From an uncultured Candidatus Saccharibacteria bacterium (lineage in GTDB: Bacteria; Patescibacteriota; Minisyncoccia; Phycocordibacterales; UBA2100), in assembly GCA_964399865.1 (NCBI GenBank), contig CAYNRJ010000001.1, forward strand, positions 475,984-539,983: DNA of 64,000 nucleotides, in the 5' to 3' direction. A program made the position numbers and the translations under genes. A model generated the notes under the pieces. It did not search any database, was not told the origin of the DNA, and saw nothing but the letters and a program-made list of their open reading frames with translations. Numbering within the stretch: the first letter of the stretch is position 1; each line of letters begins with the position of its first letter. Shown here in pieces: positions 6,038-55,358 of this stretch.

Positions 6038-6055
6038 TGCCGCCGAAGAATGCGA

Positions 6056-6084
6056 GAGGGCGCCCCATGGGTGCCCTCCTTTTT
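6056..6084. terminator. Bidirectional rho-independent terminator between convergent genes
   Basis: GAGGGCGCCCC-atg-GGGTGCCCTC hairpin followed by TTTTT; lies between the DnaA-like (+) stop and the pgk (-) stop. Confidence 0.6.
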
Positions 6085-7219: not shown

Positions 7220-7225
7220 AAGGCG

Positions 7226-7972
7226 TTATTTTAATGCATCGAGGAGCGCACCAAATTCTGATGCGTGGATACTCGCACGACCGACAAGAAAGCCCGACGT
7301 GTCGCCGTGCGCGAGCATCGCAACTGCGTTCGTTGAATCTACTGAACCTCCATATAAAATTTTCATTTTGTGTCCGATCTCACCATGCAATTCAACAACA
7401 GTTTTGCGTATAAAAATTGCCATCTCATGCATGTCCCTTGGAGCCATCGCGGTCGCTCCCCCAATCGCCCAGAGCGGTTCGTACGTGACGATCACGCGAT
7501 TCACTCGAGCAGAAACATCAGTGAGACCGACACGTAATTGTTCACGAACGATCCCAAAATGTTCTGCGCCTTGGGTCCGTACTTTTTCACCGACGCACAG
7601 AATAGGAATTAGTTTCGTAAAAAGTGCGGCCGTTACTTTTCTTCGAGTATCATCATTTGATTCCCCCATCTCCCTCCTTTCCGCATGACCGATTATGACG
7701 TAGGAAGCTCCTGCCTCTTTTGCTTGTTGCATTGAGATCTCCCCTGTATGAGCTCCGCTTGGTTCAAAATGTGCGTTCTGCGCTGCAAATAAGACTTTTC
7801 CTCCGCGAATTTCTTTCGCGAGCTGACGTAGATACAGAGCAGGCGGAGCAACGACAATCGTCGTATGACTAGCCATACTCGCGAGATGCTTCGTCTCTTC
7901 AAGGAGTCGCTTTGCTTCTCGCCACGAGGGAGGGTTCATCTTCCAGTTCGCGACCACAAGCGATTTTGCCAT
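7226..7972 (-). CDS. tpiA: Triosephosphate isomerase
   Basis: ORF 7226..8284 trimmed to 'MAKSLVVANWKMNP'; 'GHAERR', 'YEPLWAIGG' TIM signatures; 249 aa matches TIM length. The upstream 105-codon extension crosses intergenic repeat A and is taken as spurious. Confidence 0.85.
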   Translation of the reverse strand: MAKSLVVANWKMNPPSWREAKRLLEETKHLASMASHTTIVVAPPALYLRQLAKEIRGGKVLFAAQNAHFEPSGAHTGEISMQQAKEAGASYVIIGHAERREMGESNDDTRRKVTAALFTKLIPILCVGEKVRTQGAEHFGIVREQLRVGLTDVSARVNRVIVTYEPLWAIGGATAMAPRDMHEMAIFIRKTVVELHGEIGHKMKILYGGSVDSTNAVAMLAHGDTSGFLVGRASIHASEFGALLDALK

Positions 7973-8024
7973 TGCCGCGATTGTACCATGCTGCTTCTTC
8001 CCTACCTCAAGCGAGGGACGATGC

Positions 8025-8103
8025 CTCTTGAGGGTCTTCGCAGGCGCGGCGGCGCCGAGACCGAGCGCTGCGCCAGCAGGCGCAGATAGCGACCCGAAAG
8101 AGG
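8025..8103. repeat. GC-rich ~80-nt intergenic element, copy A (second copy at 13253-13333)
   Basis: Direct repeat with about 4 mismatches over ~75 nt; 5' CCTCTT pairs with 3' AAGAGG, forming the terminal stem; lies between tpiA and the PilX-like gene. Confidence 0.7.
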
Positions 8104-8117
8104 TATCGTTCCAAGCG

Positions 8118-9563
8118 TTAATTCTCTCTCCAAAGCGCAAACTTATAGTCCGTCGAAATAATTGGCGTAAACGGTGGCGGAGAAAAGGCGAGCAATTGAT
8201 CGTAGTAATCGTATCGTTGCAAATAACCCGATATCGTAACCCCGCCCGAGACCCACGCTGTTCCCGTGCGGCCATTCGAGACAACTGTCCCTACTGTTGT
8301 GAGTTCGCTTTGTGTCACATACGACGCGTACGATGACCCCACCCTTTGGCTGTTATCGTATGAAGAGCTGTTCGTAAAGAAGTCGCGACCATAGTGCCCA
8401 CTTTGTGCGACGAAGACCCCATGTATTTCCATATCGTCAGGAGACACGAGCGGGATAAGAACGTTGCGCTCGGCAATCACCGTGAGGCCATCCGTTCCAT
8501 CATTTGATGCGTATAAAATGTCATCGCGTAGATATGCGTCCGGACTCGTACTGGAATTATCCGGAGTCGCGGCAACAACGGTTACTTTCCCATTTACTGT
8601 ACCTTCTATCCATACGCGGTCCTCGAAGAAAAGGAGACTGCAGTCAGACGGAATTGCGTATGTTCCAAGGAGCGACTGATTACTAATAGTGCTGTACTCT
8701 GTTCCCCACCCGTACTGACTAGAGGAACTTGGGTGCCCGACGGTCGCAGACACTCTATATATAGTCACTGTGCCATTAGAATTGAAGATAAGATGGTACC
8801 CGCGATTATTCACAGTGCCGGAGGCAGCTGCTCGATAAATTCCTCCCTCGTTTTGAGCTTTAGTCCTAAGGTCCGTAAAATTTACTCCGATTGCAGCGAA
8901 ATTCACATTCGGAACCGGATAGGTCCAGAGCGCTGGGTTACTTCCACTTCCAACGACACCCGGCGCATTTGATTGCGTAGGAGAACAATTGTAGTTCGAG
9001 TCACAGCTCCAAGTCGCTACAGCACTCATGACATCGGAGTTGTGTGTTGCATCCATTCGGACTCCACCGTTCGAGTGATACGGTCCTCGAATGTTTCTGT
9101 CCGGACCCGCCCATACGTTGCTATTTAATAGGTATGAATATTCAGCAACCGAGGGCATCATGTACCGTGCTGAAAGCGTGCGCTTAAATCCTACGCCGGC
9201 GTTCGATCTCCCTTCCGACACAAGATCCACCCATTGCACCGCATCGCATTGAAGATTTGCAGTTGCGGTCACCGTGGCATCCCCTATCTCTCCTCCCTCA
9301 GGATCATCCACATCATAGTCGTATGGACTTACGAGCCCAGTACCGTCATCAAGGATCTCAGGATTATGCGCAAGGAACCATCGATAATATTCAAGACCTG
9401 CTTCCGCAACATGGAGTGCCTGCTCTCTCGCATACAGAGCGCGTCCATATTTAGATTGTGTAAGCGCGTAACTCGAGATCGTTCCAAGAATTAGGCCGAA
9501 CACACCGATGAATGCTACGACGAGCATGACAGTGATCCCTGATTCTGATGTTCTTTTTGTCAT
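8118..9563 (-). CDS. Large type IV pilin-like / PilX-like minor pilin protein
   Basis: N-terminal hydrophobic helix 'ITVMLVVAFIGVFGLILG' followed by a PilX_N-like 'ALYAREQALHVAEAGLE'; 481 aa, Ser/Thr/Asn-rich extracellular part. Confidence 0.55.
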   Translation of the reverse strand: MTKRTSESGITVMLVVAFIGVFGLILGTISSYALTQSKYGRALYAREQALHVAEAGLEYYRWFLAHNPEILDDGTGLVSPYDYDVDDPEGGEIGDATVTATANLQCDAVQWVDLVSEGRSNAGVGFKRTLSARYMMPSVAEYSYLLNSNVWAGPDRNIRGPYHSNGGVRMDATHNSDVMSAVATWSCDSNYNCSPTQSNAPGVVGSGSNPALWTYPVPNVNFAAIGVNFTDLRTKAQNEGGIYRAAASGTVNNRGYHLIFNSNGTVTIYRVSATVGHPSSSSQYGWGTEYSTISNQSLLGTYAIPSDCSLLFFEDRVWIEGTVNGKVTVVAATPDNSSTSPDAYLRDDILYASNDGTDGLTVIAERNVLIPLVSPDDMEIHGVFVAQSGHYGRDFFTNSSSYDNSQRVGSSYASYVTQSELTTVGTVVSNGRTGTAWVSGGVTISGYLQRYDYYDQLLAFSPPPFTPIISTDYKFALWREN

Positions 9564-9566
9564 AGA

Positions 9567-10163
9567 TTAATGACCGACGAGATTTCGGATTGCAGCAGAT
9601 GAACTGAGTACGAACTGATTCGGAAGTACTGCGACGTTCACGTTCACCGCGAGACTGACCTTTACGAATCGAACGCTTGTCCAGTTGGCGAAATTCGTTA
9701 TCTCAGAGCCGAGCTCATCATAGTACCTGAACGTGGCGAGTCCTTGTGCGGTGTTGCGAACATATTGTCCAAGAACTGATGCGGATTCAACGCCGGTGTA
9801 ATCAGGTGGATTTCCCGTTGGCTCCAGAACTCCTCGCATGAGGTTTGTTCCTGAGATGTAGTAGTGCACACGTTCAATCGTCGGATCATTGTCTATGTCC
9901 GCGTAAAAAATGAAATCGTTCGCGCCGATCGAATGAATCGGGAATGCGCCCTGACTTGAGTATGCCGCTTCGCGAATTGTTCTCACCGACTGCTCGAGTG
10001 CACGCTGACCTGTTGTGACCGCTTCTGCTTGTTCGATCGTGTATGCATTCGTTCGATAGAAATATAAGAGCGTCGAAACTATCGCGAGCATCACCATTGT
10101 GAATACTGAGATCCATACTAAGACTTCAATGAATGTCATCCCTCGCTCGTGTTCGTATCTCAT
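9567..10163 (-). CDS. Prepilin-type N-terminal cleavage/methylation domain protein (pseudopilin)
   Basis: 'GMTFIEVLVWISVFTMVMLAI' is a class III signal (G-FTLIE-like); 198 aa. Confidence 0.7.
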   Translation of the reverse strand: MRYEHERGMTFIEVLVWISVFTMVMLAIVSTLLYFYRTNAYTIEQAEAVTTGQRALEQSVRTIREAAYSSQGAFPIHSIGANDFIFYADIDNDPTIERVHYYISGTNLMRGVLEPTGNPPDYTGVESASVLGQYVRNTAQGLATFRYYDELGSEITNFANWTSVRFVKVSLAVNVNVAVLPNQFVLSSSAAIRNLVGH

Positions 10164-21357: not shown

Positions 21358-21756
21358 CTAGATAAGACCGAAGCCGATAGCAGCTAAATACCCTCCCAAA
21401 ACTACGGCCATAAAGCCGCCGGAGATATACCACTGCGATTTGTTAAACATTCGTATGAGGCGACGCATCCCTGCAAATGGGAGCGAGATGTAGATAATGC
21501 TCTCTAAGATCATGAGCCAACCCATGAGTGTAATCAGTCCTCGCCAATCTGGTGTCCAAATCGGGTGTGCTATTGCGATCGCGAGACCACCCATCAATTC
21601 AACAAGAGCAATTATTAAAATAAGTGCTCTGTTATCGATAAATTCATACACAACTGGTATGAGAGATTTCCGGCGATACATGATGATAAGGCCGGCGATC
21701 AAAAAATAGAGTCCGAGTAATTGCGCAAGAAAAATTGAGAGATCATCCATGTGCAC
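21358..21756 (-). CDS. Integral membrane protein (4 predicted helices), unknown function
   Basis: 132 aa, strongly hydrophobic. Confidence 0.5.
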   Translation of the reverse strand: MHMDDLSIFLAQLLGLYFLIAGLIIMYRRKSLIPVVYEFIDNRALILIIALVELMGGLAIAIAHPIWTPDWRGLITLMGWLMILESIIYISLPFAGMRRLIRMFNKSQWYISGGFMAVVLGGYLAAIGFGLI

Positions 21757-21929
21757 TAGTCTATACTCCTTCGTGCAAAAAATAGGTTTTTATTTTATTA
21801 CTTGTGGATAAAAACGTTTCCACAAGCCTTAACTCGTCACCTTCTCCCATACGGAGGGAGATATTTAAAACAAGAAGCCGCCCACACTATAGAAGTGTCG
21901 CACTGAGCGGACTTCCTTGTGGTGAGCGG

Positions 21930-22247
21930 CTAGCGCTTGATGGCTTCGAGTCGATTCCATTCCTCGGTGAGAGCGAGGGCTATTTTGGCCCGGACCTTTG
22001 GCGACTGACCGATTGCCATACTGACCATGAGGCAGTAGTCGGCCTGGTCACTACGCTCCATCTTGAACTCGGCTTCGGGAGCCACCTGAGCAGCGATCAC
22101 CTCCATCTGCGCATAGGTCTGAGGCGCGTTGAGGCGAGCTGTCTTGAGTTCACCTCCTGGGTACGTGTCGGTGAGAAACCAGCGCGACCTCTTCTTGCGA
22201 TCAATTCCCTTCCACCGCCAGTCATAACTAAGCTTCAAATTCCGCAC
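21930..22247 (-). CDS. Hypothetical small protein in a high-GC islet
   Basis: 105 aa; GC about 58 %; no recognisable motif. The overlapping plus-strand ORF 21804..22394 looks like low-complexity noise. Confidence 0.35.
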   Translation of the reverse strand: MRNLKLSYDWRWKGIDRKKRSRWFLTDTYPGGELKTARLNAPQTYAQMEVIAAQVAPEAEFKMERSDQADYCLMVSMAIGQSPKVRAKIALALTEEWNRLEAIKR

Positions 22248-22432
22248 GGCTTACCTCCCGATTTGAGCGGCCAATACAATACATCATCCTTCCCCATTGG
22301 GGAAGGCCGCAAAAGGTACGTCATCCAAGGAGGGAGAATTGGTCGGTTCTTAAAGCCTTTGCGAACAAGAACCCCGCGTCAAACCATTATTTGACCCATC
22401 TTTTATACTGACGTAGATTATCGGCGGCGCAA

Positions 22433-22834: not shown

Positions 22835-23452
22835 ATGAAAATTGATACACTGCGCCCTATGAATACTCCAACTGCTCAGATGCTTGTGCCAATGGTTATA
22901 GAGAAAACCTCTATGGGCGAACGCGCCTATGACATTTACTCGCGTCTTCTTAAGGAACGCATTATTTTCCTTGGAGGACCGATAGACAGCGACGTTGCGA
23001 ACCTCGTCATCGCTCAACTCCTCTTCCTCCAGTCAGAAGATCCGAAAAAAGATATCTCTTTCTACATTAACTCCCCTGGTGGACACGTATCTGCAGGTCT
23101 CGCCATCCTCGACACCATGAATCACATCCAGCCGAACGTATCTACTGTATGTGTCGGTATGGCAGCTTCTATGGCAGCAATTCTTCTTTCCGCGGGAGAG
23201 AAGGGAAAGCGCTTTGCCCTTCCAAACGCTGAAGTGATGATCCACCAGCCATCAGGCGGCGCTGAAGGAATGGCATCAGATATTGAAATAACGGCAAAAC
23301 AGATATTGAAACTCCGCGAACGCCTAAATAAGATACTCGCCAAGAACACTGGCCAGAAAGTTGAGAAAATTGCGGAGGATGTAGACCGTGATTTCTTCAT
23401 GGATGCTGCAGAAGCAGTGAAATACGGCATTGTGGATAAGGTTCTAAGCTAG
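22835..23452 (+). CDS. clpP: ATP-dependent Clp protease proteolytic subunit ClpP
   Basis: '[33 protein letters not shown]', 'INSPGG', catalytic Ser/His/Asp context ('GMAASMAA'); the true start may be an internal Met (22859 or 22880). Confidence 0.9.
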
Positions 23453-25771: not shown

Positions 25772-25840
25772 CCCTAACCTCTCGCCTTCGCATCAAGACG
25801 CACTCATGCGCACTACTTATCCCCTCTTCGTTACACTCTG

Positions 25841-25911
25841 TGCGGGATGGGAGAATCGAACTCCCGACCTCAGTTTGGAAAACTGACGTTTTACCATTAA
25901 ACTAATCCCGC
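25841..25911 (-). tRNA. tRNA-Gly (anticodon TCC)
   Basis: Manual cloverleaf: acceptor GCGGGAT/ATCCCGC, D-stem GTTT/AAAC, anticodon stem TCAGT/ACTGA with loop TTTCCAA, T-arm GGGAG-TTCGATT-CTCCC; no encoded CCA. Coordinates +/-1. Confidence 0.8.
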
Positions 25912-25961
25912 GCTCAAGAAGGACAGCATACACTGAATTTCTTTGGAGAGAAACTGGAAGA

Positions 25962-27194
25962 GTGTCAGAATACAAAAGACCTTCTTTCATATCCATGTTT
26001 CTATATATTAAATCCTTACTCGCTCATGTAGTCGCCATAGCGGTCATAGGAGGTGCTGTATTCCTCTTTGTTCGTTCGTACGAGGATTTCGCGAGGAGTT
26101 CGACGACAGCCGTAGTGCAAAAAGTAGCTACCACCTCGATCCAAACTGCGACTTCTTCCGTAGCGGTAATAGCCGAGCCACAAGAGGAGGAAGTAGTCCC
26201 CGCACCTAAGGAAATAGCCCCAATTTCGAAAAAACCAGAGCCTTCCATAGCAGTAGAAGAGCAGATCGCCACTCAACCGACCGCTGAAGAGGAAGACGAT
26301 AGCGTCCGGCGAATACAAAACCCCTACCCTACACCCCCTCTCTCGTTTGAGACCGTAAACATAGAGACGCGGGCGGCTCTCGTTAATATTGCGTGCACAA
26401 CAAGCGTGCGCGGAGTTAAGTCCGTAACTGCGAGCGGCATTATCATCGATCCACGCGGCGTTATTCTCACCAACGCGCATGTCGCCCAGTACGTTCTACT
26501 CGCGCAAAGCCCTCAATCTGGCCTTACGTGCACGATTCGCCAAGGCTCACCTGCGAGATCAGTCTGGAGAGCTGAGATCCTCTATTTTCCACCTATTTGG
26601 ATAGAGAAGCATGCAGAGGACATCACGAAGGACCGCTCAACGGGTACAGGAGAACACGACTACGCATTTCTACTCATAACAAAGCGAGTCGACGGCTCCC
26701 CTCTTCCTCCCTCATTCCCTGCGATCACTCCAGATATCCGTGAAGGCATAGGGTTCTTAGATGATTCTGTACTCAGCGCAAGCTACCCTGCGGAATTTAT
26801 CAGTGGTACGGCCGCCCAATTTGATCTGTACCCTCTTTCAACAGTTACAAAAATCCAAGAATTACTCACCTTCTACGTGGGTAACGTTGACCTCATTTCT
26901 CTTGGAGGTACTGCTGGAGCACAGGCAGGCTCTTCTGGAGGAGCCATCGTTAACGCTTGGAATCGCCTAGTGGGCCTTATCACGACCACAAAAGAGGGAG
27001 AAACGACCGCAGACAGAGACCTGCGAGGTATTACTCTCAATTACATCGACAGGGACCTGACAGCACGAAGCGGACAAAGCCTATCCTCCCTACTTAGCGG
27101 TGATCTATCTAAAAAAGCAGCTGATTACAGGACAAATGAAGCGCCTGCGCTTATAGAACTCCTATTGACTGAGATCGCAAATCATACGATCTAA
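25962..27194 (+). CDS. Membrane-anchored trypsin-like (S1 family) serine protease
   Basis: N-terminal TM 'LLAHVVAIAVIGGAVFLFV'; catalytic-triad contexts 'TNAHV' (His), 'DYAFLLI' (Asp), 'GSSGGAI' (Ser). Confidence 0.65.
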   Translation: MSEYKRPSFISMFLYIKSLLAHVVAIAVIGGAVFLFVRSYEDFARSSTTAVVQKVATTSIQTATSSVAVIAEPQEEEVVPAPKEIAPISKKPEPSIAVEEQIATQPTAEEEDDSVRRIQNPYPTPPLSFETVNIETRAALVNIACTTSVRGVKSVTASGIIIDPRGVILTNAHVAQYVLLAQSPQSGLTCTIRQGSPARSVWRAEILYFPPIWIEKHAEDITKDRSTGTGEHDYAFLLITKRVDGSPLPPSFPAITPDIREGIGFLDDSVLSASYPAEFISGTAAQFDLYPLSTVTKIQELLTFYVGNVDLISLGGTAGAQAGSSGGAIVNAWNRLVGLITTTKEGETTADRDLRGITLNYIDRDLTARSGQSLSSLLSGDLSKKAADYRTNEAPALIELLLTEIANHTI

Positions 27195-27445
27195 TAATAA
27201 TTTCGGGGCGCCGAGAATCGAACTTAAGCCTACTTCCCCTTCGGGGCCACGGATGTGCCCCGCACATCCGGTCAGTTTCTTTGTCGGGCTGCTGGGAATT
27301 TCCCTCGACCTAAGGCTCGCCGTCGCTCACCTTAGTCTGGGCACCGCCTCGCGGTTCGTCCTTCTGGCCTCACATCGCTCCGGCGTTCAATTCCAGACGC
27401 AGGCAAAGTGGGTTTGCCTGCTCACCCCTCATTCACTTCGTTCAA
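27195..27445 (-). ncRNA. GC-rich highly structured non-coding region downstream of tRNA-Pro (possible unclassified ncRNA, or the remnant of an integrated element)
   Basis: No ORF; several strong hairpins on the minus strand (GGATGTGCGGGGCACATCC, CCCCGAAGGGG, GCAGGCAAACCCACTTTGCCTGC); contains a 17-nt tRNA-Pro 3'-end duplicate. The scan excluded RNase P RNA and SRP RNA motifs and did not resolve a tmRNA fold. Confidence 0.3.
27282..27298. repeat. 17-nt exact duplicate of the tRNA-Pro 3' end
   Basis: tcgggctgctgggaatt is identical to 27446-27462; on the minus strand the copy folds as a T-arm/acceptor-like minihelix (GTCGAGGGAAATTCCCAGCAGCCCGAC). Confidence 0.6.
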
Positions 27446-27516
27446 TCGGGCTGCTGGGAATTGAACCCAGTCTACTTGCTCCCAAAGCAAGCGTACTACC
27501 GGTATACGACAGCCCG
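27446..27516 (-). tRNA. tRNA-Pro (anticodon TGG)
   Basis: Manual fold: acceptor CGGGCTG/CAGCCCG (C1:G72, typical of bacterial tRNA-Pro), D-stem GTAT/GTAC, anticodon stem CTTGC/GCAAG with loop TTTGGGA, T-arm CTGGG-TTCAATT-CCCAG; no encoded CCA. Confidence 0.8.
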
Positions 27517-27587
27517 TGCGTCGAGTAAGCATACTAGCACACTCTTAAAGGACATTCCTCCCCTCTCCATGTCCTTTATGATGTCCT

Positions 27588-27989
27588 TTAGATCTCCCCA
27601 TCCAATACCTGTTCAAACAGGCGGCAGCGGGCCGTTTTAGTCGATTCAGACAGTATTACTCCGACCACATCGATTTGGTATTCTCGATCATCACCTGAAG
27701 CCTCCATATATAGGGTCGCCGTTCTGGCAACCTTCCTTAACTTTGACGCATGGACCAATTCCTCAGGCCTGTAGTCCATTTCACGTGAAATGTCGGGCAG
27801 AATTTCACGTGAAATAGCCTTTACCTCTATAAAACGCACCTGGTTATGTATCTCGGCTATTATATCAATCTCTCCCCAGGGCTTTCGGTAGTTCCTCTCA
27901 ATGATCTTGTATCCCTTACCCTCAAGGAACTGACAGGCAATGCTTTCACCTAAGTTGCCGACTTGCCTTCTGTCAGTCCCAACCTTCAT
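27588..27989 (-). CDS. YraN/UPF0102-family putative endonuclease
   Basis: 133 aa; 'GNLGESIACQFLEGKGYKIIERNYR...GEIDIIA...VRFIEVKA' matches the UPF0102 pattern; the CDS itself contains two copies of a 14-bp palindrome. Confidence 0.65.
   Translation of the reverse strand: MKVGTDRRQVGNLGESIACQFLEGKGYKIIERNYRKPWGEIDIIAEIHNQVRFIEVKAISREILPDISREMDYRPEELVHASKLRKVARTATLYMEASGDDREYQIDVVGVILSESTKTARCRLFEQVLDGEI
27778..27815. promoter_or_regulatory. Two copies of the perfect palindrome ATTTCACGTGAAAT (27778-27791 and 27802-27815) inside the yraN-like CDS
   Basis: Each encodes the ISRE(I/M) peptide in-frame; a third copy lies at 28049-28062 in the upstream intergenic region. Confidence 0.5.
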
Positions 27990-28048
27990 ACGTGCATTAT
28001 ATATGCGAAATATGCGGGTTAGCCGCAGATATGGGTACTATTGTGGCT

Positions 28049-28062
28049 ATTTCACGTGAAAT
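28049..28062. promoter_or_regulatory. Third copy of the ATTTCACGTGAAAT palindrome, about 60 bp upstream of the yraN-like start; candidate operator
   Basis: Exact 14-bp palindrome with a CACGTG core, in a 420-bp AT-rich ORF-free region. Confidence 0.45.
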
Positions 28063-28410
28063 GTAGCAAATATCGTAACTACGTAACATAAAATATTCAT
28101 GGACAAGGTAACGCCGCTCTGTGGGCATTATCTCTATATTTCAAGCCATTTTTCTAGGAATATACTCAAATCCCTATAGGATAAAGACACCTAAGGTACG
28201 TATTTTCATGTCCTTTATCCCCATATCCACAGACTTTTCCACAGTTTCTAAGGCTTTTTCATGGTTATTAGTTCCAAAGAGTCTGTTAGATCGGTAGTTC
28301 TCGAGACAATTCGTCCTTGATGTCCTTTAGAAAACAACTCCGGTGATTTGTCAATACTGGAACACAATTTATCCTTGACCGAAAGACTCGTGATGTACTA
28401 GGTTTGCATC

Positions 28411-29448
28411 ATGATCCAAAAAGCAGCGAGACGATCACGATTCGGAGCTGTAACTCTCATTTCAGCGATCTTTTGCGTGGGACTCGCAATGTTTCCAACT
28501 AGCATTTCCGCGGATATTGTTTCCGTACAAACAAGTCAGCTTGGACAGGCGGGAAGTGGCTCTTGTGTTCCGCTCTCAGCCTATGGATTCACACCATATA
28601 TCTACGAAGGATCCCTCCATTCATTCGAATTTACGCTGCCTGACAGCTCGTACGTAGCTATTAGCGGCACGGTAGGGGACTCGTCCATCCCATTCCAACA
28701 AATGACCCGTGGAGGGACTCCTGACGCCCTTCGTATACATGTTGATATAGACAGTACGAGAGTATCAGCATCACTCCCTATCTCTGTCACTTTGCTTTCT
28801 GCTAAGGGAGGCCCTGTATGTATGTCCGTTATACTCATGACCGTCGCGGGCACGGGAAGCGAGCTGCCGCCAGTTATCCCACAGCAGCCAGAACCAGAAA
28901 CCGTACCGCCTGTGGTCACAGTTCCTCCCGTTGTAGTAGAGGAGCCAGAAGAAGTTGAAGGGGAAATCGGTACGGGTACATCTACTCCAGAAATCACCGA
29001 GGAAGAAGGGGGCACGGTGCCGTTCACGATAGCTGGCCTACAGAACAAGATTGTGGATATGTGCCTCGCCGGGAACGCTCCTCGTCTCTGGATCCTCCTC
29101 GTTGCTGTCTATGCCGTCATCGTAATAGTCGCCGTATTTGCTCGACTACCAGCTCCGCAAACGTATTCACTCGGTCAGCGTGCAGCTACCGTATTAGTGC
29201 CATTTGCGCTACTCGCAGCATTCTGGTTCTTTAGCGAAGCTTGCAGAACTGGTATTTGGGCACCGATAGTATCGATCTTGATCGCAATCGCAGGCCTCAT
29301 CGGAATATACTGGAATGATCCTCGCTTCACTGTGTACACGACATGGATCAAAAGCCGTGTCATGAAAACAGAAACACAGAAGCGACTTCCTATCCCAAGC
29401 AGCAAAGCTATCGTCACGCCACCACCGACGAAGAAACCGGGCGCGTGA
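28411..29448 (+). CDS. Secreted/membrane protein with signal peptide, Pro/Val/Glu-rich linker and C-terminal TM helices
   Basis: 'MIQKAARRSRFGAVTLISAIFCVGLAMFPTSISA' signal peptide; 'PPVIPQQPEPETVPPVVTVPPVVVEEPEE'; three C-terminal hydrophobic helices. Confidence 0.55.
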   Translation: MIQKAARRSRFGAVTLISAIFCVGLAMFPTSISADIVSVQTSQLGQAGSGSCVPLSAYGFTPYIYEGSLHSFEFTLPDSSYVAISGTVGDSSIPFQQMTRGGTPDALRIHVDIDSTRVSASLPISVTLLSAKGGPVCMSVILMTVAGTGSELPPVIPQQPEPETVPPVVTVPPVVVEEPEEVEGEIGTGTSTPEITEEEGGTVPFTIAGLQNKIVDMCLAGNAPRLWILLVAVYAVIVIVAVFARLPAPQTYSLGQRAATVLVPFALLAAFWFFSEACRTGIWAPIVSILIAIAGLIGIYWNDPRFTVYTTWIKSRVMKTETQKRLPIPSSKAIVTPPPTKKPGA

Positions 29449-29453
29449 TAGGT

Positions 29454-29480
29454 TTGCCGCAATCAAGAGCTACTGTATAA
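29454..29480 (+). promoter_or_regulatory. Putative sigma70-type promoter for the tRNA-Gly/tRNA-Arg (and cca) transcription unit
   Basis: TTGCCG-16 nt-TATAAT located about 18 nt upstream of the tRNA-Gly 5' end. Confidence 0.45.
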
Positions 29481-29497
29481 TCCCACGCTAGATATAA

Positions 29498-29568
29498 GCG
29501 GGTATGGTTTAGTGGTAGAACGCGTCCTTGCCAAGGACGAGAGCGGAGTTCGATTCTCCGTACCCGCA
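29498..29568 (+). tRNA. tRNA-Gly (anticodon GCC)
   Basis: Manual fold: acceptor GCGGGTA/TACCCGC, anticodon stem CGTCC/GGACG with loop TTGCCAA, T-arm CGGAG-TTCGATT-CTCCG. Confidence 0.85.
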
Positions 29569-29624
29569 CAAAGGAGGAGGAAAAGTAGTAGGAGAAAGGA
29601 GGAATGTTATTTATTATAGGCGGA

Positions 29625-29696
29625 CGCTCCCGTGGTGAAACGGATATCACAGCAGTCTTCGGAACTGCTATTCCAGGTTCGAATCCTGGCGGGAGC
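29625..29696 (+). tRNA. tRNA-Arg (anticodon TCG)
   Basis: Acceptor GCTCCCG/CGGGAGC, D-stem GTGA/TCAC, anticodon stem GCAGT/ACTGC with loop CTTCGGA, T-arm CCAGG-TTCGAAT-CCTGG. Confidence 0.85.
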
Positions 29697-29717
29697 ACAC
29701 GATGCTAAAATGCCGTC

Positions 29718-31184
29718 ATGACTGAGAAGCTCTCGACTCCAAAAGAAATTCTCGAAATCCACACTGCACTTCTTACTGCAGGTTTTGAGTCATACCTTGT
29801 CGGAGGATGTGTGCGTGATCTCATTATTGGACGAGAGCCAAAAGATTGGGACCTAACGACCAATGCAAAGCCCGAAGAAATCCAGGCATTATTTGAAGAG
29901 ACTTTCTATGAAAACGATTACGGCACTGTCGGAGTCGTAACGAAAGCCACCGACCCAAGAATGAAAGTGGTGGAGATAACGCCGTACCGCATAGAAGGGA
30001 AGTACTCGAACGCGAGACATCCGGATGAAGTGCGTTTTAGCGATAATATCCGAGATGATCTGAAGCGACGTGATTTCACAATCAACGCGCTCGCGTATGC
30101 GCCAGACACGAATACTTTAGTAGACGAACATGGTGGTAAGGAAGATATCGCGAGAAAACTTGTAACTACTGTAGGGGAGGCGAGTGAGCGATTCAAAGAG
30201 GACGCACTTCGAATGTTACGTGCCGTGCGGCTTTCTGCGGAATTGGATTTTGCTATCGAAACAAAAACAGCAGCCGCGATCCATGAGTCGGCGTCTCTCC
30301 TCGAAAAAATATCTCGCGAACGAGTGCGCGATGAGTTTATCCGTATAATAGAAAGCCCGCGCCCAATGCAGGCGCTCTACATTTCGCAAAAGCTCGGCAT
30401 CTTAAAATTCATTATTCCTGAACTCGAAGAGGGAATTGGTTGTGCGCAAAACCAAGCGCATGCGTACGACGTGTTCGAACACCTGCTCCGCGCACTTCAA
30501 GGCGCTGCAGATAAAGAATGGTCACTAGAGGTGCGTATCGCAGCACTCCTCCACGATGTAGGAAAGCCAGCTACGAGACGGTGGTCTGACGAAAAGAAAG
30601 ATTGGACGTTCCACGGGCACGAAGTAGTGAGTGCACGCATGGCAAAAAAAATACTCACTGATCTAAGGATGCCGAAAGAAATGATAGAAAAAATTGAAGC
30701 ACTCATTCGGACACATATGTTCTTCTCTGATCCAGATACTGTGACCCTCTCTGCTGTCAGACGCACGATCCGAAACGTCAGTCCTGCAAACATAAAAGAT
30801 CTATTGAATTTGCGTATATGCGATCGCATAGGAACGGGACGACCCAAAGAACAACCATTTCGTCTCCGCAAATATATGTCCATGGTAGACGAGGCACTGC
30901 GCGATCCCGTTTCAGTTTCTATGCTCAAGATCGATGGAACTAGGCTTATGGAGTTGGGGGAGAAAGCGGGACCTCGTATCGGATGGATACTGCACGCTCT
31001 TCTTGAGGAAGTGCTGGATGACCCAAAAAAGAACACGGAAGACTATTTGGAGAAGATGGTTGGGGAATATTCAAAGCTCTCAGACCCCGAATTAAAGAAA
31101 CTTGGTGAGGCAGGGAAAGACCGCCGTACTGAAGAGGAAGAAGCTGCAGTCCGACTGCTTAGAGAAAAACACCACGTCTCCTAA
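29718..31184 (+). CDS. cca: CCA-adding tRNA nucleotidyltransferase (polymerase-beta head) with a C-terminal HD domain
   Basis: 'GGCVRDLIIGREPKDWDLTT', 'RRDFTINALA' nucleotidyltransferase motifs; HD motif 'LLHDVGKP'; immediately downstream of two CCA-less tRNA genes. Confidence 0.85.
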   Translation: MTEKLSTPKEILEIHTALLTAGFESYLVGGCVRDLIIGREPKDWDLTTNAKPEEIQALFEETFYENDYGTVGVVTKATDPRMKVVEITPYRIEGKYSNARHPDEVRFSDNIRDDLKRRDFTINALAYAPDTNTLVDEHGGKEDIARKLVTTVGEASERFKEDALRMLRAVRLSAELDFAIETKTAAAIHESASLLEKISRERVRDEFIRIIESPRPMQALYISQKLGILKFIIPELEEGIGCAQNQAHAYDVFEHLLRALQGAADKEWSLEVRIAALLHDVGKPATRRWSDEKKDWTFHGHEVVSARMAKKILTDLRMPKEMIEKIEALIRTHMFFSDPDTVTLSAVRRTIRNVSPANIKDLLNLRICDRIGTGRPKEQPFRLRKYMSMVDEALRDPVSVSMLKIDGTRLMELGEKAGPRIGWILHALLEEVLDDPKKNTEDYLEKMVGEYSKLSDPELKKLGEAGKDRRTEEEEAAVRLLREKHHVS

Positions 31185-31704
31185 CCAATGCAATAAAACA
31201 CCTAGGAGGCTCGCTTGGGCATGTGTTCAACGGGGCCTAGCGAGCACGGCGGTGCGAGCTCGAGGAAATTTTCAGCAGAAAATTATCCGTGCCCTGGGGA
31301 ATACATGCCCAAAAAGAGCCGAACTACAGCGACAAAAGAAAAAGGCCGTTCCCACGGATAGACACGGATTCAATGATAATCTGTGCCCGTCCGTAAGAAC
31401 GGCCTCTACTTAACGTTCGGTTTAGGATCTAACGTAGGCACTAAACTAAATTTTTGGGATGCTTTGCAATCCCTTGATTACGTAGTGTGCCTGTCGGATT
31501 CCCTGAGTCTTGCGACTCATCTTGCTCTTTTTTCTCTTTTGGCAAGAACGTAGTCCCTGCTTGATGAGTAAGAGGAAGAATTAAAGATCTAGAACGTGTA
31601 AGTTAGGGTCCAAAGCTGTGCTCTGAACTCCCTGTCCTATAGGATAGTTTACTAATGGACAATGTAAAGGACAGGGTGTGGATATCTTTCCCCTTACGTG
31701 TCCT

Positions 31705-32499
31705 TTATACCTCAAGGGATATAGGGCAGTGATCAGAGCCCATCATCTCGGGGTGGATAGCTGCAGCTTTAATACGCTTGGAAAGTGCTTTGGACACAAA
31801 AAAGTAGTCTATCCGCCATCCTATGTTTCTAGCCCTAGAGTTTGCAAAGTTAGTCCACCACGTGTAATACCCCTTTCCCTTAGTAAATAGACGGAAAGTG
31901 TCTATATAACCCTCACTTAGGATCTTATCGACCCCCTCACGCTCTTCCTTGGTAAACCCATGTTCACCCTCGTTCTGTTTCGGGTTTGCGAGATCGTCTT
32001 CTGTATGTGCAACGTTCAAATCTCCGCAGAAAATAACGGGTTTTTGGGCCTCCAAGCGTTTGCAGAACTCCAAAAACGCTGGGTCCCACTGCATATGCCT
32101 TAAAGAAAGGCGACTTAAGTCAGGTTTTGAGTTTGGAGTATAGGCGGTAACGACGAAAAAGTCCTTAAATTCAGCCGTTATTACTCTCCCTTCAATATTT
32201 GGGTTTCCATACTCATCACGCACGAGGTCATATTTCTCCACTATATCTTCTGGAATATCAAAAATGACACTCAGGGGTTTAATTTTTGTGAAAATAGCAG
32301 TACCACTGTATCCCTTACGCCCTTTTGAGGAATTCCAGAACTCCTCGTACTCCGGAAGGTCGATCTCTGCTTGACCTCTCTCCGCTTTCGTCTCTTGCAG
32401 GCAGATAACATCTGGTTTCAGGGTTTCAATCACGGGAAGAAATGCACCTTTCTTATGTACGCTTCGAATACCGTTCACATTCCATGAAACGAGTTTCAT
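31705..32499 (-). CDS. xth: Exodeoxyribonuclease III (AP endonuclease, Xth family)
   Basis: ORF 31705..32532 trimmed to 'MKLVSWNVNGIRS'; 'CLQETK', 'GDLNVAH', 'RIDYFFVS', 'SDHCPI' EEP-family signatures. Confidence 0.85.
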   Translation of the reverse strand: MKLVSWNVNGIRSVHKKGAFLPVIETLKPDVICLQETKAERGQAEIDLPEYEEFWNSSKGRKGYSGTAIFTKIKPLSVIFDIPEDIVEKYDLVRDEYGNPNIEGRVITAEFKDFFVVTAYTPNSKPDLSRLSLRHMQWDPAFLEFCKRLEAQKPVIFCGDLNVAHTEDDLANPKQNEGEHGFTKEEREGVDKILSEGYIDTFRLFTKGKGYYTWWTNFANSRARNIGWRIDYFFVSKALSKRIKAAAIHPEMMGSDHCPISLEV

Positions 32500-32827
32500 C
32501 TGCACACGATACCATTTGATCTCTTCACACAAAAACCAGCCTTAGAAGCATATTCTGTAACGAGCAGACGAGCAGCTTCGTCTTAGCTCTGTACACGAGC
32601 GGTCGTTTACGAGTCTAATTTCTAAAATCACGTATGAAAATTCCAACAAACGTTTTTGGAGAACCGCAAGAAAAGGGCGCGGGGGAGTGGAGTGCGTTCG
32701 ATGTAGTACGTGACGACACTGTGAGCCTATTCCGCGTAAAACTTCCTGATCATCCGCTTGTCCTGAGAGAAAGCGGACACATTCTTCGTATCGTCTATCC
32801 GTTCAATCGAACTCTAAGCGCGGCAAA

Positions 32828-48234: not shown

Positions 48235-49125
48235 ATGAAATTACTTCGTGCTCATTTCATTCTTTTTCTCATTGGAGTTACCGCACTACTCCTTGTGATC
48301 GGTGCGTTCGCACTAAAAGAATATTCGCCAGCTCAAAATACACCTAGGACAATCGCATGGGGAGGCCTTGGAGGCACCCCGTATTATCCACTTTCGGGCG
48401 AAAGAGCGATCGAAAGTAATCCTGCAGAGGAGAATATCTACAGCTCAATTCAAAGCGGGCCGCCGTTCTATTATTCAACGACTAACTCGGAAGCGGCGGA
48501 TGAGGAAGATGACACGTTCGACGTCGACGCGTTTCTTGCATATCTCAAGGGAGAAACGAGGACATCAGAAACTGCGGTCGAGGAGGAAAAACCGCTTTCG
48601 TTTCTTGAGAATCCATACTCATTTATCACAAATGGGGTCTCCTTCCCGAGTAGCTCCCTTACGAAAGAACGCACACCAATACAGCAGGCTTTATATGAGT
48701 ACGGAAATAAGGCTGGAAAGATCATTCAGACATTTGAAGACTCGAATCAAAACATGGCTGATGTAGTGCAGGCACAATCTGAAGATCCGGAAGACCCTCT
48801 TAAGGTCGCTGCCCTTATAAAACTAGCGGACTCTCTAGCAGATGTAGGGGTTTCACTAGAAGAACTCTCCTCTGTTCCAGCAGAAGCGGCCAATCAGAAC
48901 GCCAAACTTGCGACAAGCTATAAAGATATGGGTGCAAAACTTGCGCTCGTGCCTAACGCCATGACCGAAGACAGTAGGGTAGAGACAATGCTTACCTATA
49001 ATGCTGCCGCCGAATCGTTCGTCACAAATTACGTGGCTATCGTCACTCTTTTCTCGATCATGGAGGTCACATTTTCTCCTGATGAGCCGGGTAGTGTGTT
49101 CACTTTCACGATGACAGGGTTTTAA
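48235..49125 (+). CDS. Bitopic membrane protein (N-terminal TM plus ~260-aa extracytoplasmic domain); first gene of the T4SS-like operon, possibly VirB8-like
   Basis: 'MKLLRAHFILFLIGVTALLLVIGAFALK' TM anchor; the architecture (short N-terminus, 1 TM, ~230-260 aa domain) matches VirB8-type proteins, but no sequence signature was recognised. Confidence 0.5.
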   Translation: MKLLRAHFILFLIGVTALLLVIGAFALKEYSPAQNTPRTIAWGGLGGTPYYPLSGERAIESNPAEENIYSSIQSGPPFYYSTTNSEAADEEDDTFDVDAFLAYLKGETRTSETAVEEEKPLSFLENPYSFITNGVSFPSSSLTKERTPIQQALYEYGNKAGKIIQTFEDSNQNMADVVQAQSEDPEDPLKVAALIKLADSLADVGVSLEELSSVPAEAANQNAKLATSYKDMGAKLALVPNAMTEDSRVETMLTYNAAAESFVTNYVAIVTLFSIMEVTFSPDEPGSVFTFTMTGF

Positions 49126-49185
49126 GCCTCGACTGTCCACTCATTGTCCCCACGAAATCCCCAGGAAGCGGTTATACTTTATGCA

Positions 49186-50001
49186 ATGAAAGTAAGCGCG
49201 TTGAAGGGCGTGAGTTTTTCGCGTATGGCGATAACTGCAACACTGTCGATCGCAGCTGTTATTGGAGTTTCTGCGTGGCAACTAACAGCCCCTCTCCGGA
49301 GCGGGGGTGAAGAACTCGCTACCGGGAGTAACGATTCCACTATCACGATGGGTCGGACTGGAGATCCGGATCGTCAGTTTGATTGGCAGAAAAGTCTTGA
49401 GGGAATCTCGTCCGACGATCCAGATGGACTTTCAAATATCGGTGAAAATGTTGTTGAAACTTTGGTTGGTTCATACGTCGCGCTAAAAGACGCGGGAGTG
49501 TATACGCCAGAACAAGGGGCACAAATAGCTGGTGTAATTGCAACAGATCTCAAGGCCGATATTTCATTCCGTCTCTATGACACTGACGACATTAAGACCG
49601 ACACAAGCACTTCTTTCACTCGTTCGCTCGCATATCGAAGCGATATGCGCATCGCCCTCGAGCCTCTTTTGGAAAATCCTACGTATGAACTCGAGATACT
49701 CGGAGGATATATGGAGACTAAGGACCCAAAGTATCTCGCTGAACTGGAGAACATGGTCCGAAATTACAATGTTGCTATCGAGAATGCCGCACAAGTAGTC
49801 GTTCCGAAAGACGCGATCACATACCATATCAGTGTTCTGAACGCACTCTCTGAATTCGGCGCGACACTCGCACAAATGGTTAAGCACATTGACGATCCCT
49901 TCGCTTCTGCGGCGCTCCTTCGGACATTCAATGGCGCAGAGGCAAAAATGTTTACTTCGTTTGATGAGCTCGCAGACTATTTCCGTAAATCTACCTCATG
50001 A
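49186..50001 (+). CDS. Bitopic membrane protein, distant paralog-like of the upstream gene
   Basis: ORF 49144..50001 trimmed to MKVSALKG; TM 'MAITATLSIAAVIGVSAW'; same architecture as the 48235 gene. Confidence 0.5.
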   Translation: MKVSALKGVSFSRMAITATLSIAAVIGVSAWQLTAPLRSGGEELATGSNDSTITMGRTGDPDRQFDWQKSLEGISSDDPDGLSNIGENVVETLVGSYVALKDAGVYTPEQGAQIAGVIATDLKADISFRLYDTDDIKTDTSTSFTRSLAYRSDMRIALEPLLENPTYELEILGGYMETKDPKYLAELENMVRNYNVAIENAAQVVVPKDAITYHISVLNALSEFGATLAQMVKHIDDPFASAALLRTFNGAEAKMFTSFDELADYFRKSTS

Positions 50002-51593
50002 AAACAAGCTCCCTCATTTTCATACCGTTTAAGTTTGCTATCGCAACAATTACTCTGTTTCTCTTACTGACCTCTTTCGCTCAAGCTCAAACAGATACCT
50101 CAACCACCACTGCAGGATTATCGAGCTCAGGTATATTCGACTGCAACAGTAAAGCCGGAGCTGAGGCGATGAGCAGTGTCGGAACAAAAAGCACGATTCA
50201 AAGCTTATATGTCCCAGTTTCTGACGCAGGAGTAACCTTAAACACCGGATCTTTGGTCTACAAGGAATGTGTTCTCGACCCTATAAACACGCGCATGCGA
50301 GAGAACGCTGCTTTCTCGCACGTTCAACTCGGCATAAAGGCGTTTAACAAGGGGGCTGATGGTGAACCAATGTTTATAAAAGATTACATCGCGAAAGTTT
50401 CGGAGCGCAGCGACAAAACATTCCTACGTACATTTGAAGAAGGGGAGCTTGATACACTCAATCCAGCCTTTAAGGATGAAGTTAAGCGCGCGATCGCTGA
50501 AGATTATAAAACTCAGACCCGTGAGCCGAACAAGGTACTAGAATGTTCGTACAAAGGCGATCTCGCAAAAGTATACGCAGGACAACCGGAAGATATTTGG
50601 GGAGCTATCATGGCCATTGCAGAGCCAGCATGTAATCCGGTTGGAGCTTACAATCTCGCGCAAGAATATATTATAGACAATATCGCATCAGATAAGGAAG
50701 AGATGCTCTTCCGCCTTAATAACAGCAACGCCATCAAAGATGTCCAAACATACAACGAGGAGACCGGGCGATACGAGACCCTCACTCCAGGTATCATCGT
50801 TGCTGAAAATGTTCAGCAACTTATAACATCCGGCTTCCGGCAACTTGAGAACGCCGACGAGATAGGTCAAATGGTTGATGCGCTATATTCTGGCCTCTCC
50901 ACACAAGTAGTTTCCGATACTCGAGGACTCGCGGGAGTAACCGAAGGATTCGCTGGCCAGCCTTCTTATCTCGACCAAATTGGTGACACGCTCCGCAAAA
51001 ACCTTCGCGATGCAGCGGTTAATATAGCTTTGGGAATTCTAAAAGGCGCGAAGCAAACCGAGATTACCTATTTCAATGCATTGAATTCGATTGCACTTAC
51101 CCTAACGGCAACGATAGGGGATCTTCGCCAGGCAGAAGCACTATGTTGGGCAGAAGTAGTACCAAAAGCTCAAGTCTATGCAAGTGCAAATAATATTCAA
51201 ATAACCGTTGCTACTTCAACCCAATTTTCACAAGCGGTTATCAATGCACAGATAACATCTCTCGCTTCAACAACGATAACGGATATACGAAAGAGTGAGA
51301 CCGCTCTCTCCCTCATAGATCATTTAATAGAGGGCATTACGAACACGACTTCTCCGGATGCCCAGCGTGTAGCTCTTCAACAGTTAGATTCTCTCGTGGC
51401 ACAAGGAGCCCTACACGGAGAATACGATGCCCAGCAGGCAGTGAAGCGAAGAGATGAGATAAAGCCGGCAATGGAAAATCTCGTGGAAGATACGGTTGTA
51501 GCATGGGCTGATTCTGCTGACGTAAATGTCGGCTGGTGTAACGTCAATAATCCTGCGGTCGCCCAAAAATGGGTCGAGGAGTGGAGAAACTGA
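49998..51593 (+). CDS. Secreted protein (signal peptide), unknown function, T4SS-like operon
   Basis: 'MKTSSLIFIPFKFAIATITLFLLLTSFAQA' signal peptide; 531 aa; 4-nt overlap with the upstream gene. Confidence 0.55.
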   Translation: MKTSSLIFIPFKFAIATITLFLLLTSFAQAQTDTSTTTAGLSSSGIFDCNSKAGAEAMSSVGTKSTIQSLYVPVSDAGVTLNTGSLVYKECVLDPINTRMRENAAFSHVQLGIKAFNKGADGEPMFIKDYIAKVSERSDKTFLRTFEEGELDTLNPAFKDEVKRAIAEDYKTQTREPNKVLECSYKGDLAKVYAGQPEDIWGAIMAIAEPACNPVGAYNLAQEYIIDNIASDKEEMLFRLNNSNAIKDVQTYNEETGRYETLTPGIIVAENVQQLITSGFRQLENADEIGQMVDALYSGLSTQVVSDTRGLAGVTEGFAGQPSYLDQIGDTLRKNLRDAAVNIALGILKGAKQTEITYFNALNSIALTLTATIGDLRQAEALCWAEVVPKAQVYASANNIQITVATSTQFSQAVINAQITSLASTTITDIRKSETALSLIDHLIEGITNTTSPDAQRVALQQLDSLVAQGALHGEYDAQQAVKRRDEIKPAMENLVEDTVVAWADSADVNVGWCNVNNPAVAQKWVEEWRN

Positions 51594-51601
51594 TCTTGCA
51601 T

Positions 51602-54142: not shown

Positions 54143-54147
54143 TAGGT

Positions 54148-55353: not shown

Positions 55354-55358
55354 AATCT

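Follow-up and report, generated by a model that had tools for sequence, protein, structure and literature searches.

A conserved 9-bp operator-like box at tRNA-Pro and small-RNA promoters of an origin-proximal island in Kaiserbacteria and Paceibacterota, and a candidate winged-helix regulator

The DNA analysed here, a stretch of 64,000 nucleotides from contig CAYNRJ010000001.1 of an uncultured Candidatus Saccharibacteria bacterium (hereafter the window), contains a compact segment of tRNA and protein-coding genes whose spacers carry repeated copies of a 9-bp box, TGTCCTTTA (TAAAGGACA on the opposite strand). The segment extends from a tRNA-Pro gene and yraN, through a gene encoding a 345-amino-acid (aa) membrane protein, tRNA-Gly, tRNA-Arg and cca, to xth, which is followed by genes for a XerA-like recombinase and mgsA (Table 1). 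All seven exact copies of the 9-mer in the 64-kb window fall inside 27546-31707, that is, within 4.2 kb; 0.46 copies are expected from shuffled versions of the window and none of 100 shuffles reached seven. The rest of the window together with 11 kb past its ends (~70 kb examined) had no copy. Because one-mismatch variants were not enriched window-wide (16 versus 11.3 expected), the signal is local.

The copies form three inverted pairs with spacers of 15, 19 and 25 nt, in agreement with a preliminary description of this DNA, made from its letters alone, which had reported a reverse and a forward copy 15-25 nt apart at each of three loci. Its copies proved real and its coordinates correct outside the third locus, where the two positions given (31645/31679) were 20 nt too low (31665/31699). 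It had also noticed two words shared by the regions 28161-28240 and 31630-31700, and both are present: CCTATAGGATA, common to 28173 and 31636, which is itself a variant box (TATAGGAtA), and ATATCCACA, at 28223(+) and 31677(-). The latter, described as a near-DnaA box, is conserved and becomes a perfect TGTGGATAA in most relatives. An imperfect copy of the box, ATAAAGACA, is located at 28181-28189. The boxes also reach into coding sequences: TAAAGGACA, read on the minus strand, supplies the TAA stop codon of both yraN (27588-27590) and xth (31705-31707), and in most relatives the yraN stop is touched or overlapped by one or two boxes.

Using the cca protein, we found 80 related loci in GTDB species representatives (64-76% identity), mostly named Candidatus Kaiserbacteria or Paceibacterota. 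The source of the window is itself a Candidatus Kaiserbacterium, of the Candidate Phyla Radiation. These loci contain 252 copies of the 9-mer in 1.17 Mb, where ~8 would be expected (~30x), and the gene order around the boxes is conserved. In the 48 syntenic loci, 49 copies lie just 3' of yraN, 38 in the spacer between yraN and the 345-aa gene (37 of them in one orientation) and 78 in the cca/xth spacer; the far flanks of the same loci (~600 kb) hold only eight. The bases beside the 9-mer are not conserved, and the flanking intergenic DNA is otherwise unalignable between species. Because of the ~30x excess and the recurrence at the same three syntenic places, the box is neither a chance word nor a dispersed element. 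The preliminary description had offered degenerate copies of a small dispersed element as its alternative and background frequency as the outcome that would speak against the motif, and neither fits these counts; seven copies confined to 4.2 kb, at positions syntenic in 48 loci, are not the pattern of a dispersed repeat resembling repetitive extragenic palindromes (REP) or miniature inverted-repeat transposable elements (MITE). Its proposal of operator sites of a regulator holds in kind, in view of the orthologous positions, the base-for-base conservation and the two sites that lie on core promoter elements. The targets it proposed, genes flanking the tRNA loci, were mostly wrong: the boxes stand at the 3' ends of yraN and xth, and the predicted promoters that they occupy are those of tRNA-Pro and of an unannotated small RNA in the cca/xth spacer. 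Judged by this pattern of conservation, the 9-mer is a DNA box of the protein-binding type, retained at three fixed syntenic positions by dozens of uncultivated Kaiserbacteria and Paceibacterota genomes. Our search of the literature on the 9-mer and on oriC of bacteria of the Candidate Phyla Radiation (CPR) returned nothing relevant, and a scan of viral contigs for the inverted pair gave 57 matches, mostly AT-rich phage hairpins or coding repeats.

Among the NNNNGGACA words of the relatives, TAAAGGACA occurs 246 times, TATCGGACA and TATAGGACA 59 times each and TAACGGACA 30 times, with a mean of 7.4 per 4-mer prefix. These counts make the 9-mer the commonest form within a box family under selection, TA(A/T)NGGACA, mostly placed at a 12-bp phase. 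The arrangement differs among the three places. The cca/xth spacer of the relatives holds the module TAT(A/C)GGACA-nTG-TAAAGGACA-N3/4-TGTGGATAA(C)-N1-25-TGTCCTTTA, where TGTGGATAA matches the DnaA box perfectly. The yraN/345-aa-gene spacer carries three tandem DnaA boxes, the first of them overlapping the 9-bp box, and this triple array, (T)GTCC(T/G)-TTATCCACA-T(A/G)TCC(A/C)CAGAG-TT(G/T)TCCACA-GTTT, is present in 40 sequences; 20-26 nt upstream of it, the relatives have (G)AACGGACA or TAYGGACA, comparable to the degenerate boxes of the window at 28173-28189, and the single box at 28321 has a counterpart at the equivalent position in many of them. An element ATATGGCTnAAAATA is also conserved in this spacer of the relatives. 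3' of yraN, the boxes usually read TAAAGGACA-tyc-TATCGGACA-N-TGTCCTTTA, and DnaA boxes are lacking.

Many of the boxes in the cca/xth spacer and beside tRNA-Pro coincide with predicted promoter elements. Downstream of the minus-strand boxes of the cca/xth spacer, TANNNT occurs at offset 18 in 43 of 66 cases. A -10 element (offset 16-19) was found in 49 of 67 such spacers, a -35 TTTACA made of the last four bases of the box plus CA in 39, a further box lying 3-4 nt beyond the first in 40, and a DnaA-like box 3-5 nt upstream in 32; 27 of the 67 combine this further box with both the -10 and the DnaA-like box. DnaA box and box 1 are 3 nt apart in 21 loci and 4 nt apart in nine, and the promoter layout in the relatives can be written TTATCCACA-N3/4-TGTCC[TTTACA]-N3-TGTCCNNTA-N6-TAttnT, with a TNNNGGACA box immediately after the -10 in 'type A' relatives. 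At tRNA-Pro, the layout box-N9-(TGn)TAGTAT is repeated in four related loci (L005, L008, L012 and L054), and TGTCCGATA precedes it at a 12-bp phase in several relatives; the extended -10 upstream of tRNA-Pro is a predicted promoter element. The boxes thus overlap core elements of orthologous promoters at the small RNA and at tRNA-Pro, which is not the case for the copies in the yraN/345-aa-gene spacer. A protein bound at these positions would block or replace recognition of the -35.

The minus-strand promoter of the cca/xth spacer is followed by a conserved non-coding stretch of ~300 nt in the window and 215-255 nt in the aligned relatives. The predicted minimum free energy of the window RNA is -120.8 kcal/mol versus -72.9 for shuffles (z = -9.7), and a long 3' hairpin, with arms at 31343-31370 and 31378-31405, forms a terminator together with the U-run behind it. 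Homologous sequences in 38 related spacers make up one BLAST cluster. In an alignment of 17 homologues, compensatory double changes preserve 22 out of 32 predicted pairs, and the loop of one hairpin, CCUC(U/C), is invariant. The window and six related loci matched no Rfam model, whether at gathering score or with the threshold relaxed to E 1-10. This RNA is a candidate for a new, previously undescribed small RNA, and its pyrimidine, anti-Shine-Dalgarno-like loop suggests pairing with Shine-Dalgarno regions.

Table 1. Genes, boxes and other sequence features of the island (positions in the window; relatives, the related loci described in the text).
Feature	Position	Strand	Remark
Trypsin-like protease	25962-27194	+	
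tRNA-Pro(UGG)	27446-27516	-	Downstream of box-bearing promoter
Predicted extended -10 (TGC-TAGTAT) of tRNA-Pro	27531-27536	-	(G)CTAGTAT/ATAATAT conserved in relatives
All exact box copies	27546(-), 27570(+), 27582(+), 28209(+), 28321(+), 31665(-), 31699(+)		
Box TGTCCTTTA, tRNA-Pro promoter-proximal	27546-27554	-	Ends 9 nt upstream of -10 hexamer
Tandem boxes TGTCCTTTA-tga-TGTCCTTTA, 12-bp phase	27570-27590	+	Second gives yraN TAA stop
yraN	27588-27989	-	
Two parS-like palindromes (ATTTCACGTGAAAT)	27779-27814 (27779-27790, 27803-27814)		In yraN coding sequence
Third parS-like palindrome	28050-28061		Upstream of yraN
Palindrome GTAACTACGTAAC	28075-28087		Right after third parS-like site
Degenerate boxes TATAGGAtA, aTAAAGaCA	28173-28189	+	Orientation opposite to 28209 box
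Box TGTCCTTTA over first of three tandem DnaA boxes (TTATCCCCA, ATATCCACA, TTTTCCACA)	28209-28243	+	Three DnaA-like boxes at 28215-28243
Single box TGTCCTTTA	28321-28329	+	~90 nt upstream of 345-aa gene start codon; near-copy cGTCCTTgA before
345-aa membrane protein gene	28411-29448	+	
tRNA-Gly, tRNA-Arg	29498, 29626	+	
cca	29718-31184	+	
Candidate structured small RNA	31337-31634	-	Terminator arms, then U-run
Palindromic variant boxes TGTCCTATA/TATAGGAtA	31633-31646		Overlap -10 and predicted small-RNA start
Predicted sigma-70-type promoter	31641-31668	-	-35 TTTACA 31668-31663; -10 TATCCT 31646-31641
Variant box TGTCCATTA	31661-31653	-	Inside 16-nt -35/-10 spacer
Box TGTCCTTTA, box 1 of small-RNA promoter	31665-31673	-	
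DnaA box (ATATCCACA; TTATCCACA in most relatives)	31677-31685	-	3 nt upstream of box 1, 12-bp phase
Inverted box TGTCCTTTA	31699-31707	+	Its TTA is the complement of xth stop
xth	31705-32532	-	
XerA-like recombinase, mgsA	After xth	-	

A scan of metagenomes with TAAAGGACANNNTAAAGGACA (two boxes in 12-bp phase) returned at least 120 loci and pointed to a protein that might read them. Among the matches listed, 60 lie beside cca/xth and four beside yraN, at loci with cca identity down to ~50% and a G+C content of 31-56%; among the remaining matches listed, at least nine fall inside a single gene family encoding proteins of 250-290 aa with the C-terminal signature SEKTIQREL..L...G.V.K.G.RRW..Y. 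The genes of this family carry boxes at the start codon and in a linker region, where they are translated as KGQ, KGH or KD. Three members picked by protein similarity alone, as an unbiased test, all had boxes at the gene start and two or three tandem linker boxes, with almost none elsewhere in 17-21 kb, and they share a common setting: recA, ftsK(-), the gene itself(+), a DnaA box, a long leader, a gene with a peptidoglycan (PG)-binding domain, and rplJL. At the protein level, KG[QH] was found in 233 of 240 family proteins versus one of 149 unrelated controls, and the tandem KG[QH]xKG[QH] in 126 of 240 versus none. The presence of boxes at both the start and the linker of the gene suggests autoregulation.

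An AlphaFold (AF2) model of the candidate (mean predicted local distance difference test score, pLDDT, 81) begins with a helical bundle, continues through a disordered linker and ends in a winged helix with its three helices and beta hairpin (H175-196, H201-207, H213-226, E229-232, E239-242). The C-terminal domain superposes on MecI/BlaI at 2.1-2.6 A over ~64 residues, and also on ArsR types (NolR/HlyU) and MarR. The Pfam families HTH_DeoR (E 0.011) and Penicillinase_R (E 0.036) match under their curated cut-offs, and PF08220 is precomputed on a few database members of the family. The family ranges over Adlerbacteria and Paceibacterota, the same range as the cca/xth box module, and, as our best candidate, is probably the regulator that reads the boxes. 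Downstream of the winged-helix gene, the next ~450 nt (from 10952, 10880 and 10965 in loci L268, L269 and L270) contain a perfect DnaA box and a TATACT promoter-like site; a long conserved leader (gccagctagccgatgggacg...gtcggatagtg...) follows, ahead of the gene with the PG-binding domain, and may be another structured RNA or a riboswitch.

Other proteins were considered as binders and set aside. YraN is unlikely, given the role of D-loop nuclease of natural transformation assigned to it in a preprint (10.1101/2024.02.06.579203). The DnaA-like paralog that the preliminary description had proposed to test against the motif is a genuine protein with DnaA domains I and IV: the gene at 5252-6037(+) encodes a 260-aa DnaA_N protein that combines DnaA domain I with a DnaA-type DNA-binding domain and lacks the AAA+ module (structural matches of its model to 4tps and 3pvp have template modelling scores, TM, of 0.86 and 0.88). 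It evolves fast, its base-contacting motif is INYMRV instead of RDHTTV, its nearest homolog (33% identical) has different recognition residues, and there are no boxes near its gene. Helix-turn-helix (HTH) and LAGLIDADG-like proteins are encoded beside the boxes sporadically, in some relatives, and do not occur in the window.

The island also carries signs of proximity to the replication origin. The palindrome ATTTCACGTGAAAT resembles tGTTTCACGTGAAACa, which we take to be the parS consensus, a 16-bp palindrome clustered near the origin. Its three copies lie within 283 bp, ~37 kb from dnaA, and nowhere else in the window; TTCACGTGAA is conserved within yraN of the relatives. In closeness to the consensus, clustering near the origin and conservation, these sites behave as parS would. 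The two copies internal to yraN encode a repeated ISRE(I/M) peptide, and a second palindrome, GTT(T/A)CTTAAGTAAC, represented by GTAACTACGTAAC in the window, stands a few bases from the upstream parS-like site in the relatives. No ParA or ParB gene was seen in the window, ParB not having been specifically sought. As for DnaA boxes, TTATCCCCA, ATATCCACA and TTTTCCACA fit TTATCCACA or the relaxed form TTWTNCACA, and TAAAGGACA does not, differing from TTATCCACA at positions 2, 4, 5 and 6. Two perfect TTATCCACA boxes exist elsewhere in the window, one at 21803-21811, exactly between divergent unknown open reading frames (21358-21756(-) and 21804-22394(+)), the other at 23431-23439, at the end of clpP.

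The origin itself is likely to be the dnaA-dnaN spacer. The right end of the window holds an R3H/Jag gene, beyond which (locus L146) come yidC and rnpA, then dnaA and dnaN at ~65.4-68.1 kb window-equivalent. The stretch concerned is L146 16103-17957 (window-equivalent ~65.2-67.0 kb), and its dnaA-dnaN spacer contains TTATTCACA, aTATTCACA and GTATCCACA; the last is followed by GTA, then by CTA ATA ATA GTA ATA GTA TTT ATA and an AT-rich stretch. These eight NTN triplets are the complement of 3'-NAT-5' DnaA-trios, and an oriC is recognisable by a DnaA box followed by at least three DnaA-trios within 16 bp and an AT-rich region (PMC8287927). The DnaA encoded there has a canonical domain IV (PRQ and RDHTTV), and the locus contains neither GGACA boxes nor parS. 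At the island, no trio periodicity follows the triple-box array in the 40 sequences. GC skew is negative across the entire window, with no sign change, which is what leftward-moving forks from dnaA-dnaN would produce; the skew is more negative left than right of the island in 21 of 22 loci, a shift in magnitude only, and the skew at third codon positions (GC3) shifts in the same direction. By these signatures, the island is origin-proximal (35-39 kb away) and is not the origin. Immediately left of jag-yidC-rnpA-dnaA, a plus-strand run at 48235-63514 encodes PrgI, TraG/VirB4-like P-loop and type IV secretion system (T4SS)-pilin domains among unknown proteins, and represents a type IV secretion or pilus-like cluster.

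Protein genes of the island are static among related genomes, and tRNA-Gly(UCC), tRNA-Pro, tRNA-Gly(GCC) and tRNA-Arg flip (L005-L083 ~3800-9960; window 25840-29698). On the minus strand downstream of tRNA-Pro, the window has a second copy of the tRNA-Pro 3' end at 27203-27223 (AATTCCCAGCAGCCCGA) and, at 27284-27300, a fragment matching the tRNA-Pro 3' end of other Kaiserbacteria (GTTCGATTCTCGGCGCCCCGA); both look like scars of past integrations at tRNA-Pro. HTH and LAGLIDADG-like genes stand beside these tRNAs in some relatives, with none in the window, and the sporadic LAGLIDADG-like genes could be connected with the rearrangements. Three assembled loci (L001-L003) all end 215 nt upstream of cca, inside tRNA-Gly(GCC) (window ~29503), as do many GTDB contigs. 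Such a common assembly break suggests strain variation in the fast-evolving gene of the 345-aa surface protein, or a repeated tRNA.

The reading that we favour, with a probability of roughly 0.6, is that the boxes are read base-specifically by a protein, with the winged-helix family as candidate, and that DnaA acts with it to set the output of stable-RNA promoters. TGTCCTTTA would be the preferred form of the 9-bp box (TA(A/T)NGGACA on the other strand), grouped in three clusters, one on the 3' side of yraN by the tRNA-Pro promoter and one each in the yraN/345-aa-gene and cca/xth spacers, within a conserved 4-kb island that carries parS-like sites and DnaA boxes ~35 kb from the predicted oriC. 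Tandem boxes in 12-bp phase would fill the region from -40 to -20 of the tRNA-Pro and small-RNA promoters and, since a DnaA box lies in phase just before the latter, the bound protein and DnaA most likely set stable-RNA output. The positions of the boxes look like repression, activation being also possible, and nearby inverted boxes probably permit cooperative binding. The reader would be a Paceibacterota-wide protein of ~250-290 aa, composed of a helical bundle, a linker and a winged helix, with boxes at its own gene by which it may control itself.

Several observations weigh against this reading. There is no recognisable promoter at the boxes of the yraN/345-aa-gene spacer or at the inverted copies abutting the yraN and xth stops, so promoter control fails to cover all copies. 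The distance from box to -10 is unequal between the two promoters (6 nt versus 9 nt). Taken as a whole protein, the candidate matches winged-helix repressor folds weakly (E 0.02-0.1), and its Pfam matches are below threshold. We found no family member encoded in the window or in the 10 kb flanking it on either side, and none of the 240 matches listed bears a Kaiserbacteria name, so that we infer the presence of the regulator in this genome by phylogenetic bracketing. Finally, the strict 12-bp phasing with the DnaA box would also fit an assembly nucleated by DnaA. A possible though doubtful extension is that the winged-helix protein and DnaA co-assemble on the phased boxes, either as a CPR-specific switch that would couple replication and segregation to small-RNA and tRNA output, or for titration or inactivation of DnaA as at datA, with the box protein in a role like that of IHF. 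The regulator gene adjoins ftsK and recA, and the targets adjoin xer, yraN, mgsA and parS.

We consider it unlikely that DnaA alone accounts for the boxes, that is, that they are lineage-specific low-affinity or ATP-DnaA sites onto which DnaA spreads from a canonical box, the island titrating or inactivating DnaA, as datA and the clusters of B. subtilis do, or forming part of a split origin. Clusters of DnaA boxes outside oriC offer a precedent in B. subtilis (PMC3245932) and, as datA/DARS, in E. coli (PMC4585315). Like them, the boxes described here are asymmetric 9-mers in either orientation in origin-proximal intergenic DNA, with true DnaA boxes interleaved and one cluster inside a promoter, an arrangement also seen at DnaA-regulated genes. 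Also in favour of DnaA, parS-like sites are adjacent and a triple DnaA-box array occupies the neighbouring spacer; T1, A3 and A7-C8-A9 are common to the box and TTATCCACA, TGTCC to the box and the local variant TTGTCCACA, and the distance to the DnaA box is fixed at 3-4 nt, in 12-bp phase. However, the box is off consensus, violating the relaxed TTWTNCACA at positions 2, 4 and 6, and the DnaA of this genome has a canonical domain IV. Drift would be expected of weak sites, whereas TAAAGGACA exceeds the DnaA boxes themselves in both uniformity and number. No DnaA box accompanies the cluster 3' of yraN, the predicted oriC has no GGACA boxes, and the boxes track the winged-helix gene. It is improbable, in turn, that the island is oriC and the boxes bind an origin-specific accessory factor, and we dropped this idea. 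The island does hold the strongest DnaA-box cluster in ~85 kb and the three parS-like sites, and the shifts of GC and GC3 skew have the same sign; but the dnaA-dnaN spacer ~35 kb to the right has the DnaA boxes, the eight trio-complement triplets and the AT-rich stretch, no trio run follows the boxes of the island, the skew does not change sign, and the flanking genes converge on the locus.

Two readings at the level of RNA and of DNA rearrangement were rejected, the former on covariation and terminator scan, the latter on synteny and geometry. It is very improbable that the inverted pairs work at the RNA level, as hairpins that terminate or stabilise the yraN and xth mRNAs at their 3' ends. 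The pairs do begin at the stop codons of both minus-strand genes, but no U-run follows them and a terminator scan makes no call on them; their loops of 13-44 nt often hold a DnaA box, and many copies are single or tandem. The partner arm is missing (at least two mismatches) in 20 of 49 related spacers and present in 24, and deviations are never compensated, so that the arms do not covary as those of an RNA stem. Hardly any weight can be given to the boxes as recombination or mobile-element sites, be they targets of the XerA-like recombinase or ends of repeats, whose activity would explain the tRNA inversions. A tyrosine recombinase gene adjoins xth, tRNAs change orientation between relatives, fragments of the tRNA-Pro 3' end are found close by, and Logan contigs break in tRNA-Gly. 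Against this, the boxes stay fixed while the tRNAs flip, the most-flipped tRNA-Arg has no boxes around it, the inverted spacing is variable with no 6-8-bp core between 11-13-bp arms, and the copies are syntenic across species with 50-76% cca identity.

The predicted winged-helix operator resembles several known systems in part. As in autoregulated winged-helix repressors (BlaI/MecI, ArsR/SmtB, MarR, and CtsR with its direct repeats), short tandem and inverted boxes stretch across -35 and -10, the same boxes occur at the gene of the putative regulator, and the C-terminus of the candidate superposes on BlaI/MecI, NolR/HlyU and MarR. Unlike in those systems, the boxes are asymmetric 9-mers in 12-bp phase that also occur singly, additional tandem boxes lie within the coding sequence of the candidate, translated as KGQ/KGH, and the candidate has an N-terminal four-helix bundle and a long linker, with no Pfam match above threshold. 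In the pho box read by PhoB/OmpR-type proteins, TGTCA-like direct repeats about one helical turn apart stand 6-10 nt before the -10 and replace or overlap the -35. The direct repeats described here have the same placement in the promoter, whereas they have a period of 12 bp instead of 11 and TGTCC as their half-site, inverted copies are frequent, and the candidate lacks a receiver domain. The parS centromere of Caulobacter, with its DnaA binding (PMC6667618), likewise has DnaA boxes beside parS a few tens of kb from the origin; the island differs in having a third, more abundant type of box and sites that overlap stable-RNA promoters.

Almost nothing is known about gene regulation and cell-cycle control in CPR bacteria, which cannot as yet be cultivated on their own. 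The result presented here is a testable regulatory module, conserved over a large CPR clade and composed of a 9-bp operator, a candidate regulator whose coding sequence itself contains the operators, which is unusual, a new structured small RNA whose CCUCU loop is invariant, and a fixed geometric link to DnaA boxes and parS sites. These parts can be tested in vitro or with existing metatranscriptomes, free of culture. If the winged-helix protein and DnaA did co-assemble on the phased boxes, the module would represent a dedicated cell-cycle regulator of these reduced genomes.

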